A DNA stretch of 64,000 nt from assembly GCA_035084275.1 (NCBI GenBank), contig CM068755.1, forward strand, positions 10,850,001-10,914,000, given 5' to 3'. Shown here in pieces: positions 39,443 to 52,570 of the stretch (position 1 is its first letter; each line of letters starts with the position of its first letter). The stretch comes from Hydrolagus colliei. Lineage: Eukaryota. Under the pieces are notes generated by a model. That model was not told where the DNA came from. It saw nothing but the letters and a program-made list of their open reading frames with translations, and ran no database searches. The position numbers were made by a program, and so were the translations under genes.

Positions 39443-40488
39443 CCAAGCAAACCTTGTACTGTTCCACTCCATGTATGAGTGAACTTATTATTATATATTG
39501 TGCTCTTGTATTCATTACCTATGGACCAAATATGAACTTTGTATAAAGATTCCAAATAACTTGATTGCTTTTTACTCACAGATTATGCTCAAATTTCTCC
39601 TTGGAATGTGTCAGAACTATCGGAATATGGCAGAGCTTACTCATCAGGCATCCACCCACTTTACAGACGTGATGTATGGAGTTCAAGTGATACAAAAGGG
39701 AAACAGAAAAACAGCTTGCTGACAAGCTACCAGAACATGGAGAAAATGAAGGAAATTATCCTGCCTTGTGACTCTCTTCTTAAAATAACTAATTATGTAC
39801 TGGGAAAAGTTTTGGAAAATTCTGTACCGCTTGAAACCTGTGATCAGAAGCTGAGTTCAAAAATGACTCAAATTGACCCACTGATTCTTCTTAAAGTAAA
39901 GATAAAACCACAGTTACTTCACCAAGTCTTACTGTTGCTGAAAAGGTTGGACATGCTGGTAAACGCTCATCAAGGAGAAGCTTTCTCCATTATGAAGAAA
40001 CTAATGGCTAAAGAACAAAAAAGGATTTTGGAGAAGACCATTAAAATCCCAAATATTCATGGTAGGTATATTTATAATACATTCTAAAAAAATTATTAAT
40101 AAAAATTCTTGAATTTGATAGCACAGCTTATCACATTATCAAAAGTGTCAAAAAGCATTTTACTTTGTAAAGTGTAGTGTCAATGTATTCCTAGATGAAT
40201 GGTGGCAGCCAATTTGCACACAGTAATGCCCTAAAAGTAATTGGTTAACAGTAACTATAATAATAACATTTCAATTAAAAAAGTATTTTATTCATTTGTA
40301 TTTTCCAATGATGTGAGTGTTTTCCCCTGTTATCAATCTGACAGGTCAGACAGTGAAATCTGTTAAAAGCCAGTTTAAAAGGGATATATATATATATCGA
40401 TTCACATAAGGAACTCAGCAAGTGGAACGTGGGAGGCATGAACCAAGCAAACCTTGTACTGTTCCACTCCATGTATGAGTGAACTTAT
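39443..40488 (+). repeat. Perfect 46-bp direct repeat (39443-39488 and 40443-40488)
   Basis: CCAAGCAAACCTTGTACTGTTCCACTCCATGTATGAGTGAACTTAT appears twice. Confidence 0.92.
39582..40061 (+). CDS. TMEM2-like gene, putative extra extracellular stalk exon (480 nt, phase 1-1)
   Basis: Acceptor ttgctttttactcacag|AT. Open for 160 codons in AT-rich DNA ((D)YAQISPWNVSELSEY...KTIKIPNIH). Donor ATG|GTAGGT. Symmetric phase 1 fits between the TM and G8 exons. Confidence 0.65.
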
Positions 40489-42970
40489 CAAAAATATATA
40501 TTAACCTGCAAGTTTACATTTACTAACACATGGGAAATTCATTATAGAGTCATCACCTGGGTCCAATAGTTTACTCAGTTAACCTAACACACTTCTATAT
40601 GATGATGCCCAGCAAAATATTTTAAAATAAACATGTGATACTTATTTTCCAGAAAAATGGGAAGCTATTCAATTATTTAGCAATAACTGTGCAAATAAGA
40701 AGCACTCACTCACTCCTCCTGAGCCACAGTTAATTCACAGTAGTTGTGTGAAGACTGGTTGTTGACCTTTTGTACTTATTATCAAGTGACTGTTTTCATA
40801 GGCAAACAGATATTTGGAGGTTTTCAAATGGCATGATTGTTTGTGGCATTCTCTGAGCTAGTTGTTGGGAATAGGGTTTCTTCCCACCCAGCTCCCATTA
40901 ACCTTGAAAACATAAGCCCTAATGGATCGGGTGGGACCAGTCAGATAAACGGTGGAAATCTTTCCATGTGTTTGCAAGGACAATCTGCACAAATGTTCAC
41001 TGGTTAAACTCTATTCGTACCCCCACATGCAAGTCATAGCTCTTACCAACCTAACATTTATTTTTGAGGATTAGGTAAGAAGAGTGCTTTCCACCATGAA
41101 GAGTGTGCACATTTCATTCCAAACAAGTGATGGATGTGTGGAACTCTCACGTGGTTTGGTTCAGACACTCAGCGAACTGAAAATAAAAAAAACTTCCGTT
41201 ATGTGCAACTCTCTTGAGCTCTGCAGCTTGAGATAGCTTTGTCCACTTCAAAATGATTTAAATACAGTAGGATGTACAATGACAAGGCTGAGATTTTACC
41301 AAATGTACAATTGCTGGTTGTTTCCTATGATTCAGTCAATTCCCGATGCACTTCAGATGTTTTCAACACCCTATTCCTCGTCTTCCAAGATTTGTCGACA
41401 AATTTCCTCTGCAGTAGTGTGTCAAATGCTTTGCTAACATCCAAATTTATAATGTCATCAAGTAGTGACTTAATGATTTAATTCTCTGTCAATAGCAGTG
41501 GGATTAAATGCAAAGATTAAATTTTGAGCACATCTGTATTTGGCAAGACTGCACTTCCTCTCTCCATAGATTCTTCAGTTCCGTTTCTGTAAGTGGAAAA
41601 AATGGGTCTGAGTGTTCAAATATCATAATTTATTCCTTTTTCTTTATTCTATTTGTACTTACTAGAGATTTTGTTACAAGCATTATAACCTTCATTGTGT
41701 ATGACTTGAACCAATGAACTCATCTTTATTGAATCTGGTACCTAACATAACATTATCATCTAAGAGACTTCAGCAGTTACTTCAGTTAGTTTTAAATCAT
41801 TCCCCATTGAACTGTGCTGACTACATGATTGACCCAGATGATTCCTCATGCTTCTGCATATAATTTTCCATTTTGTTCACCTCAATCTTAAAATGCTCAG
41901 TGTTTACAGGATTCATAAAATATTTCCTAAACCAGGGCAGAGTTTGATGGACTTTACTTTAATTAGCTTCTCACTAAAGTGCAGAAGCTAAGTACTGTAT
42001 TAGGCCATCAGCATGTACCATCTATTTTTGGTTACTTCTAACATAGCTCTGTTCGTTTGCTCACTGCTGTGATTCGTATCTCAGAAATGTGACAGCTGCT
42101 GTCACTCTCATCTTGAGATTATTCGTTAGGGCAAGTAATTTAATGAGTCTTTAAACCAAATTTAGGCTGGATTTGGAGAGTGTGTTCTCAAATGGTGTCT
42201 TGTCCCCAAATGACATTTTTAACATATTTCTTAATACGGTATTCCTAACAGAAATTGAGTTAGATATCGGCACAGACTCGATGGGCCGAATGGCCTCCTT
42301 TTGTGCTGTAAAATTCTATGACATTATAATATTTCAGTCAATGCTGGTAAACAAGAGGGAATAGAAATGAGGACGTAGGTTTGGGAAAGCATGGAATGGG
42401 ACCAGGTTATACAACCTACGTCAATGCTGGTTGTATTATGCATGAGTCATTGGCATTAGTACTCTGTGACTCTTCATAACATGTTTGTGTGGAATATGTA
42501 TTTACCAATCCATTTGTTAGAATTGAAAGAAATGTAAATAATTTTTTACTGAAGTATAGTATTTCACAGCTTAATATGTGAATGGTTCACTCTGTGGAGC
42601 TCAATATATGTGTCTGTATGTGTGAGAGAGGGGGAGAGACAGCAGCAGGAAAACACAAGCTAGCATAAACATCTGACTACATATATAAATATATAAAGAA
42701 GATGAAAACAAACCAGAAAGGAATTGGGCAGAAACAGTCAAGTCAGCTGGTTAAATTGCTCTCAAGGCTGACTCATGTAAGTGGTTGAGGCTTGTGCAAA
42801 CATATAAGTAACTCCAGCAGTAGAGCCTAAAGACCTTTAAACCACTGTTGGAAGCACCCCATGTTGAACAGACACACTATTCAGACAAATATTACAGATG
42901 CTTCTTGACACGTTATGTAGCTGTTGGGTGTTCTGTTCTTCAAATTGCGCTTCCATCACCTTGTATTAAA

Positions 42971-43598
42971 TTCAAGCTAAGTGTTCTAAAAGGCAAGAAA
43001 AGATGGTTTGAGCCCCATTCTTGCCGATTACCACTTCTGTGCTGGTGGCTAACAATTGGTTGAACCCTTTGCAAAGATGGGAACACTGAGCTGACTGGCT
43101 GTGTGGAAAAGAAAATCAATATCAGCTAGAGGTGTTCCGCAGCCCACTTTAATGGACGGCAAGATGTCCAGACAACCAACTAGTCATTACTCAGTCAGGG
43201 AGTCAACGAGAAATTGATAAAGATCTCCTTTATGACTAGGGAAATTGGCACTTTTAGATCCAAAATAGTGGCAGAAACAAACCTAATGCAACAACATCAA
43301 TTACAAATTGCATTTACATAGTGCCTTTCACACCGGGATTACATCCTGAGGTACTGCTTCTTGTCTGAACATCTTGCTGTCCATTAAAGTGGGCTGTGGT
43401 ACGCCTTGAGCTAAATATGCAGCTGGTATTTTCTTTTCTGCACAACCAAGTCATTTCAGTGTTCCCATCTTTGCCAAGGATATCGATCACACAAGCTGGT
43501 TAGCTAACTGCTCAGCTTGGAAGTGACAATCAGCAAAACTAAGACTGGATCAGGGACTCAAACTGTCTCTTCTTGTCCTTTAGGACACTTAGCTTCAA
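42971..43598. repeat. Degenerate long inverted repeat (arms about 42971-43175 and 43361-43598)
   Basis: Matching blocks include cagcccactttaatggacggcaagatgtccagacaa / ttgtctgaacatcttgctgtccattaaagtgggctg, aaagatgggaacactga / tcagtgttcccatcttt, and aagctaagtgttctaaa / tttaggacacttagctt. Confidence 0.85.
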
Positions 43599-51200: not shown

Positions 51201-51435
51201 AGCTACAAGAGCGGCTGCTGCACACAGCGCTACAGCCACAGACACTGGCTCTCTCTGTCTGTCTATAATCTATCTGTGTGTGTGTGTGTGTGAGTGTTGT
51301 GTGTACAGAGCGTCCCCAGCCACATCAATCCCTCCTCTCTCCCTCCCTCCCTCTCTCCCAACCCAAACCCAAACCCAGCATTGAGTGCAAAGCACCGGCT
51401 ACTTTGGTGGCTCCCTCCAGCATCCAAAGTGACAG
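51200..51435 (+). other. Putative non-coding first exon driven by the 51.17 kb TATA promoter
   Basis: Starts about 25-30 nt after the TATA box (inferred). No ATG seen. Ends at donor CAG|GTACCC (51435/51436). Confidence 0.45.
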
Positions 51436-52438
51436 GTACCCCCCCCCCCCCCCCCCCCCTCACTCCCCAACCCTGCTCTCCCATCCCTATCTCTCTCCTC
51501 TCTCTCTCTCTCTCTCTCCCCACCACCACCTCCTCTTCTCCCATCACCATCAAGACAAGAGCCGGGTTGTGAATCTACCTGACTTGACTGACTGACTGAC
51601 TGACAGACAGTGTGTGTGTCTGCCCGTGTCTGTGTGTCACCTGGAGACCAACAGCTGTAAACCAAACGCCTTGACCCTGAACAACATCGCAGCCTCTTGG
51701 AAACTCTCAACCATCCGCCATCCACCCACCCACCTGCCTCTGGCTTCTAGTAACAGGTGTGCCTGCACAGAGCGCGTCAACATGTCTATCGCTGTGACTT
51801 CACTGTGTGTGTGTGTTGATGCATCTTAAAAAATCCTTTAATGGGGGTGTGGGGGGGGGGGGGACTCTTTATTCTCTCAAAGAATGCTATGCTTATATTT
51901 AGTAATTAACCAGGCAACTTTTACAGGCAGGATTTCTAAGTAGATTATTTGTAGACTGTTTTTTCTCTCTCTCTCTCTCTCTCTCTGCGGGGTAGGAAAA
52001 GAGAACCTGTTCCACCAAACGCTTGCCTTTCTCTCGCTTGGGGGGGGGGGGGGGTGATTTAGGATTTGTCTCGATATTAAAACCGATTGTTTTTTAAACC
52101 CCACCAACAGGTTCCTGGCACACTCGGGTGGCATTATTGTGCGCGGTTATCTGAGAGATTTCCATTCTCTCTCTCTCTCTCTCCATTACTGATGGCATTG
52201 AATTTCTGGCAAGCTGGTATCTGGTGTGACAAGGCTATTGGGTGTTGCGGTGTACATTGCTACAGTACTACAGATATATGGTTCAGTTCTATGATTTTTT
52301 AAAAAAAAAATGCTGTTATCTCATCTGCCGATCAGTGATTCTCGATACAGACCTTTCCTGTTCCTCTCCCGGGATGTTATCCTTTATAGTTCCTATTGTA
52401 ACCGGTGTCTTCAAACCTGGATCACGATTGCCCTCCAG

Positions 52439-52570
52439 TTATCTTTAGCACTGAGCTCCCAAACAGCGCCCAACTGGGACTAACTCAAGGCTCAGATACA
52501 GTAGCTGCTTCCGAACCTGTCTTACAATTTGCCTATTTTGAATGGGGAAGAAAGTATTGCCCACAAACAG
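52439..52570 (+). CDS. TMEM2-like gene, possible additional 132-nt phase 1-1 exon
   Basis: Acceptor ttgccctccag|TT, open frame (V)IFSTELPNSAQLGLTQG...EWGRKYCPQT, donor CAG|GTGTGT. KYCP resembles TMEM2 KYAP just before the G8 exon. Splice signals are only moderate. Confidence 0.3.

Follow-up and report, generated by a model that had tools for sequence, protein, structure and literature searches.

Sequence comparison points to a third CEMIP/TMEM2-family paralog in Hydrolagus colliei with a conserved domain in front of G8

Introduction

What stands between the hydrophobic segment and the G8 domain of a TMEM2-like protein encoded in the chimaera Hydrolagus colliei, and what could it do there? The gene lies on the plus strand of a stretch of 64,000 nucleotides from contig CM068755.1, referred to below as the window. 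CEMIP and TMEM2 are treated as a pair in reviews. The original prediction had read the gene as TMEM2 with up to three additional symmetric exons between the donor of the transmembrane (TM) exon after position 34549 and the G8 acceptor at 52704, both of which are in the sequence. Our comparisons argue for two of these exons and for a gene distinct from TMEM2. The features concerned are:

34221..34549, plus strand: exon with the N-terminal tail and the hydrophobic segment (signal anchor or long signal peptide); 79% to Callorhinchus; KD19 2.35 versus 2.62 in human TMEM2
39582..40061, plus strand: large phase 1-1 exon of 160 codons with prosegment, probably decayed furin motif, predicted helical domain and basic linker
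39662..39679, plus strand: YRRDVW, aligned to the [KR]R-x-x-R motif of the family (alignment and motif count); the P1 Arg is Trp here
39758..40009, plus strand: conserved core domain, residues 59-142 of the exon peptide; Cys62 and Cys86 do not vary, prediction gives three long helices, and the domain is net basic
47298..47348, plus strand: small phase 1-1 linker exon of 17 codons; included in the Callorhinchus models X1-X3 (RefSeq) and in one from UniRef; identity 78% at E 0.002
52439..52570, plus strand: candidate third exon, unsupported, probably intron
52704..52844, plus strand: first G8 exon, phase 1-1; 84% to Callorhinchus, donor GT at 52845

Coding status of the inserted exons

By conservation, annotated orthologs and trees, the large and the small exon are coding. 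The large exon has the properties claimed for it: 480 nt between AG and GT, phase 1-1, and a peptide with an NVS sequon, YRRDV, two Cys and a Leu/Lys-rich segment. It contains no in-frame stop versus 7-12 in each of the other five frames, and it falls in the longest plus-strand open frame of 34550-52703; 160 open codons are expected by chance at its composition with a probability of about 8e-6. A homology search with the 160-aa peptide showed it to be conserved in cartilaginous fishes and bony vertebrates. A transposon match of the reading frame was also looked for. In one DNA run the exon had a depth of about 50, i.e. that of single-copy sequence, while nearby repeats were 200- to 10,000-fold deeper; it did not overlap the repeats within the window, had no Pfam match, and its homologs occur at one gene position.

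The small exon of 51 nt with its GTAAGT donor held up as well, backed by Callorhinchus models. The order TM exon, large exon, 17-aa exon, G8 is found in four of these (RefSeq X1-X3 and one UniRef model), and the splicing of the stalk exons in Hydrolagus colliei is inferred from such orthologs. The third candidate did not fare so well: no homolog was detected among the 160 proteins compared (best E 8.6), and the Callorhinchus models go from the 17-aa exon straight to G8. Hence the insert measures 177 aa, the lower end of the predicted range of 177-221 aa, the upper end of which depended on the third exon. A lax scan of these introns returned 25 open symmetric AG..GT stretches. Four Callorhinchus UniRef models translate the counterpart of window positions 52560-52703, an intron end including an AT repeat, as a false N-terminus. 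Since automatic gene models already hold the two exons, their sequence is not new in itself.

Identity of the gene

G8 and ILEI are present in the window and beta-helix exons map there, which places the gene in the CEMIP/TMEM2 family; the Callorhinchus and Cetorhinus orthologs have all four domains (G8, GG/ILEI, CEMIP beta-helix, domain X). On sequence grounds it is not TMEM2, as had been assumed, but a third, separate paralog (RefSeq 'CEMIP2-like') reaching from chimaeras to birds, with its own clade, the support of an approximately unbiased (AU) test and the 177-aa insert. In a tree of 18 rows and 890 columns, 12 paralog members from chimaera to duck formed one clade (97/99). This clade was sister to primate TMEM2, the only TMEM2 in the trees (no non-mammalian TMEM2 was included, which limits them), and four shark CEMIPs stood outside as a separate clade (100/100). 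Grouping primate TMEM2 with the sauropsid members was rejected (p-AU 0.0076; 14 rows, LG+G4).

TMEM2 (CEMIP2; PDB 8C6I) shares with the paralog the four domains, a long N-terminal tail with a hydrophobic segment, 58-60% identity over about 890 aa with the Callorhinchus ortholog, and the residues R265, D273 and D286. In contrast to TMEM2, which has about 9 residues between the TM helix and the first G8 Cys and no helical domain, the paralog carries 177 extra residues at this place and, in the family, a furin-type motif; it thus departs from the TMEM2 layout of a TM helix followed directly by G8. CEMIP (KIAA1199, HYBID) has the same domain set, is secreted via a signal peptide according to PMC12423501, and is the direct downstream neighbour of the paralog in fused gene models of catshark and eel. 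However, it is only 46-57% identical to the paralog, the signal peptide of shark CEMIP meets G8 directly without the helical domain, and the shark CEMIPs are a separate clade and separate, adjacent genes.

Models named 'CEMIP2-like' or 'transmembrane protein 2-like' in RefSeq (Callorhinchus XP_007905360, Xenopus tropicalis XP_002932301) are orthologs that contain the large exon and, in Callorhinchus, also the small one. Their names are automatic, and the region is unannotated in Pfam and often split off as 'uncharacterized protein'. No published description of this paralog, or of its domain, came up in a literature search, which did not extend to subscription journals or supplements.

A conserved core domain

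Conservation of the large exon is concentrated in its core. Between the window and bony vertebrates, identity drops from 39% in the core (residues 59-142) to 18% both in the prosegment and behind the basic site, and to 12% in the linker. In core numbering, C13, C37 and L70 are invariant in 57 alignment rows. AlphaFold modelled the 101-residue core with a mean pLDDT of 85.6 and a pTM of 0.77 and placed helices at 13-27, 50-53, 60-72 and 78-100, whereas the prosegment is predicted to be disordered. The core is therefore probably a small three-helix domain, and the invariance of the Cys pair suggests a Cys62-Cys86 disulfide. No match was found among Pfam families, PDB sequences or solved folds. 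This agrees with the earlier description of an unrecognised, probably helical region; a mere spacer, which had been proposed as well, is argued against by a core that is conserved and confidently folded.

Core and linker together are net positive in all 45 full-length proteins (median +10); control windows elsewhere in the same proteins have a median charge of 0, with +10 or more in 13/446. Across jawed vertebrates the domain is kept 15-35 residues before G8. In the loop between the two Cys (window 39825-39845), a 5-residue deletion is common to the window and Callorhinchus relative to sharks and bony vertebrates.

Distribution and apparent losses

The peptide of the large exon matched 'hyaluronidase-like' proteins of Callorhinchus milii (84%) and the basking shark (52%), two of 285 candidates. 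Its identity is about 50% to sharks and 34-44% to bony vertebrates. A search with the shark region matched 11 of 814 candidates, all from cartilaginous fishes, and from an unindexed search came 11 representatives with 34-44% identity; these were proteins of turtle, Xenopus, bird and axolotl, or records without a name. The domain together with G8/GG as query returned 585 matches, the best 120 of which were listed; 108 new proteins from these were examined. Among the matches listed, 37/108 have the domain (sturgeon, gar, coelacanth, lungfish, frogs, newt, turtles, alligator, worm lizard, birds), 27 are primate TMEM2 without it, and 44 are paralog models without it, most of those inspected beginning with unrelated upstream sequence.

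No mammalian member of the paralog was found among these 120 of 585 matches; because the mammalian rows there are TMEM2 only, the paralog has apparently been lost in mammals. In tarpon, eel and one bichir isoform (X1), the signal peptide is joined straight to G8 and the domain is absent. The domain would therefore be dispensable in some lineages. With sturgeon, paddlefish and gar keeping it, two independent losses have possibly occurred.

The furin-type motif and the hydrophobic segment

Furin-type proprotein sites follow the consensus R-x-x-R in an exposed, variable segment. Such a motif, [KR]R-x-x-R, occurs in 21/56 rows, at 18-37 residues ahead of the first Cys and inside an otherwise variable segment; these rows include 10/11 other cartilaginous fishes and 8/13 frog rows. 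Its background is 14/932 control windows, although the rows counted are related to one another. Most birds and turtles have a dibasic pair only, and Xenopus has none. A convertase site had been predicted in the stalk at YRR|DV. A putative site of the family is indeed there, but not in the form proposed: the motif of the family is [KR]R-x-x-R, and its P1 Arg is lost in this species. Where Callorhinchus reads RRAVR, the window reads RRDVW, and YRR|DV is thus probably a decayed furin site. The P1 codon is TGG (Trp), a lineage-specific change, and no other letter was found there in the DNA run.

Judged by inspection of hydropathy, the window and the rays have a TM-like hydrophobic segment; that of bony vertebrates is short and resembles a signal peptide. 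In sturgeon, gar, lungfish, frogs, salamanders, turtle and eel, a short hydrophobic stretch precedes small-x-small (-3,-1) sites.

Alternative splicing and domain-only models

It had been suggested that skipping of the symmetric exons tunes the length of the stalk. For the linker this is supported by skate RefSeq isoforms, some with and some without a 16-aa linker exon, and by catshark isoforms, in which two donors are used in the large exon. The large exon itself is not skipped as a whole in the cartilaginous-fish isoforms examined, none of which joins the hydrophobic exon directly to G8. The skate linker exon is unrelated to the small exon of chimaeras. In elasmobranchs the linker exon is strongly basic, with a second R-x-x-R motif and a sequon, and it is skipped in some skate isoforms.

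One turtle model exits the large exon early. Models consisting of a signal peptide and the domain only exist in turtles (Chrysemys XP_065415402/3, Caretta CAM2099055) and end at the same spliced 'E-stop', and read-through versions are present in Gopherus, Malaclemys and three birds. The domain-only models of turtles and birds, which are annotated 'uncharacterized protein', may represent genuine short products or pieces of split gene models.

Proposed function and alternatives

Our preferred interpretation, held tentatively and at somewhat less than even odds, is that the ectodomain is released by furin, as predicted from the motif, and that its docking on polyanionic matrix or cell surfaces by the basic helical domain takes over from the membrane anchor of TMEM2. 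The hydrophobic segment would route the protein to the secretory path; in bony vertebrates it is likely cleaved as a signal peptide, and in cartilaginous fishes it possibly stays as an uncut anchor. A cut after [KR]R-x-x-R, for which we see a reasonably good case, would strip off anchor and prosegment and leave the helical domain on the enzyme. Hyaluronan, heparan sulfate or an acidic partner could then serve as targets for the basic surface and the linker, which is the weakest step. The conservation concentrated in the core, the confident fold, the motif in a variable segment, the small-x-small sites and the net basic charge all count for release and docking. As the P1 Arg is Trp in Hydrolagus, the protein of this species may still be tethered, and the module would then be a true stalk.

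As to the enzyme, the equivalents of R265, D273 and D286 in lectin-like domain 1, given as hyaluronidase residues in PMC10206443, are kept in 22/22 proteins. A soluble TMEM2 ectodomain was active in one study (PMC10474455), and hence a released form of the paralog could work.

Several points weigh against release and docking. The furin motif is absent in Hydrolagus colliei, Chiloscyllium, Xenopus, gar and most birds and turtles, and the models of tarpon, eel and bichir do without the domain altogether. Hydrophobic core positions make up most of the invariant residues, and a basic charge is unspecific. The enzyme activity of the paralog, judged from its residues, is uncertain: the pair His248+Ala303 occurs in 0/22 proteins (Tyr/Arg in the window). 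One group finds this pair necessary (PMC12423501) and PMC10474455 contests it, and another group reports soluble human TMEM2 to be without activity (PMC10206443). Between these three papers, the activity of TMEM2 itself is thus disputed.

Among the alternatives, an oligomerisation domain that makes a dimer or trimer of the ectodomain appears unlikely, though it fares best. The Leu-rich helices have a wide hydrophobic face and the C-terminal helix is long (residues 78-100 of the AlphaFold model), but AlphaFold gives a compact monomer at high confidence, the likely intrachain bond accounts for both Cys, and the net positive charge disfavours self-association.

Somewhat less probable is an intramolecular regulator, a lid or folding aid packed against the G8/lectin/beta-helix body that would determine activity or the size of the product. 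The constant distance to G8 across jawed vertebrates would fit, as would the difference from active mouse TMEM2 at positions 248/303. Against this, the linker varies in length and sequence and is alternatively spliced, and eels and one bichir retain the catalytic body without the domain.

We consider it improbable that the domain is an autonomous, hormone- or cytokine-like module made both fused to the enzyme and alone. This would make it a secreted ligand not yet described, with a small fold of a new kind and prohormone-like processing, stand-alone as well as fused in turtles and birds, the whole system being lost in mammals. The domain-only models behind a signal peptide and the prohormone-like layout suggest it, and Atlas feature matches of the turtle domain were helical cytokine clusters (0.75-0.80). 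However, Atlas scores below 0.9 are at the level of shuffled proteins, and the domain of the window itself gave THOC1. No cytokine was in the top 50 of 48,161 chains in the VIA search, and no Pfam cytokine match was found. Moreover, the short models may result from genes split in annotation, and downstream models in those species often start with unrelated sequence.

Slightly less probable again is a passive spacer that holds the enzyme off the membrane. It would agree with the variable linker and prosegment, the skippable linker exon and the loss of the furin Arg in this species, but not with a Cys/Leu/Pro/Lys pattern that is invariant from chimaera to birds in a confident fold, nor with the retention of the domain in lineages whose N-terminus resembles a cleavable signal peptide. 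A chance reading frame or transposon remnant in an intron, finally, is refuted in effect: although the junctions in this species are taken from orthologs, every cartilaginous-fish species returned and many bony vertebrates have annotated proteins with a homolog at the same position, and the exon has single-copy depth and no repeat overlap.

The locus

The remaining mapped features of the window are:

15316..25633, plus strand: ABHD17C-like gene directly upstream of the CEMIP2-like gene; coding blocks 15316-15783 and 25403-25633, tblastn identity 76-83% to three teleost ABHD17C proteins
33123..33190, plus strand: first coding exon of the CEMIP2-like gene (ATG; 22 codons and 2 nt); 91% to Callorhinchus residues 1-23, GT donor
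53345..53905, plus strand: exon with the remaining G8 and the GG/ILEI lectin-like domain 1; Pfam G8 and ILEI, match to PDB 8C6I at E 8e-59, tblastn

Further beta-helix exons were mapped by tblastn up to 62490, and the CEMIP2-like gene extends past the end of the window. Elsewhere CEMIP lies directly 3' of the paralog, as seen in the fused models of catshark and eel and in consecutive accessions in three sharks. From the fused models we infer the gene order ABHD17C, CEMIP2-like, CEMIP. PMC10035218 and PMC11188527 give ABHD17C and CEMIP as neighbours in chicken and cattle. High-copy interspersed repeats, probably SINE/LINE fragments, lie at 35500-36900, 38600-39500, 42200-42600 and 45300-46200, with a depth of 1e4-1e5 in the DNA run.

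Implications

The paralog would be a third jawed-vertebrate member of the CEMIP/TMEM2 family, lying in tandem with CEMIP and forming the sister group of TMEM2; its extra conserved domain falls in no known family or fold. Because it is annotated as 'TMEM2' or 'TMEM2-like', expression reported for fish, frogs, reptiles and birds can be credited to the wrong gene. Three published genes may be this paralog: chicken 'transmembrane protein 2-like' LOC415478, about 6 log2 units up in the shell gland along with CEMIP (PMC6347800); Xenopus 'transmembrane protein 2-like', a Six1/Eya1 target (PMC5035141); and, in a tortoise, a 'cell surface hyaluronidase-like' gene that responds to Mycoplasma infection with strong induction (PMC7449761). 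There is dispute over whether CEMIP/TMEM2 proteins really are hyaluronidases and over their need for a membrane anchor. The paralog, probably released, with a putative, removable docking module, with lineages that have and lack the domain, and present in Xenopus and chicken, would offer a direct comparative test.

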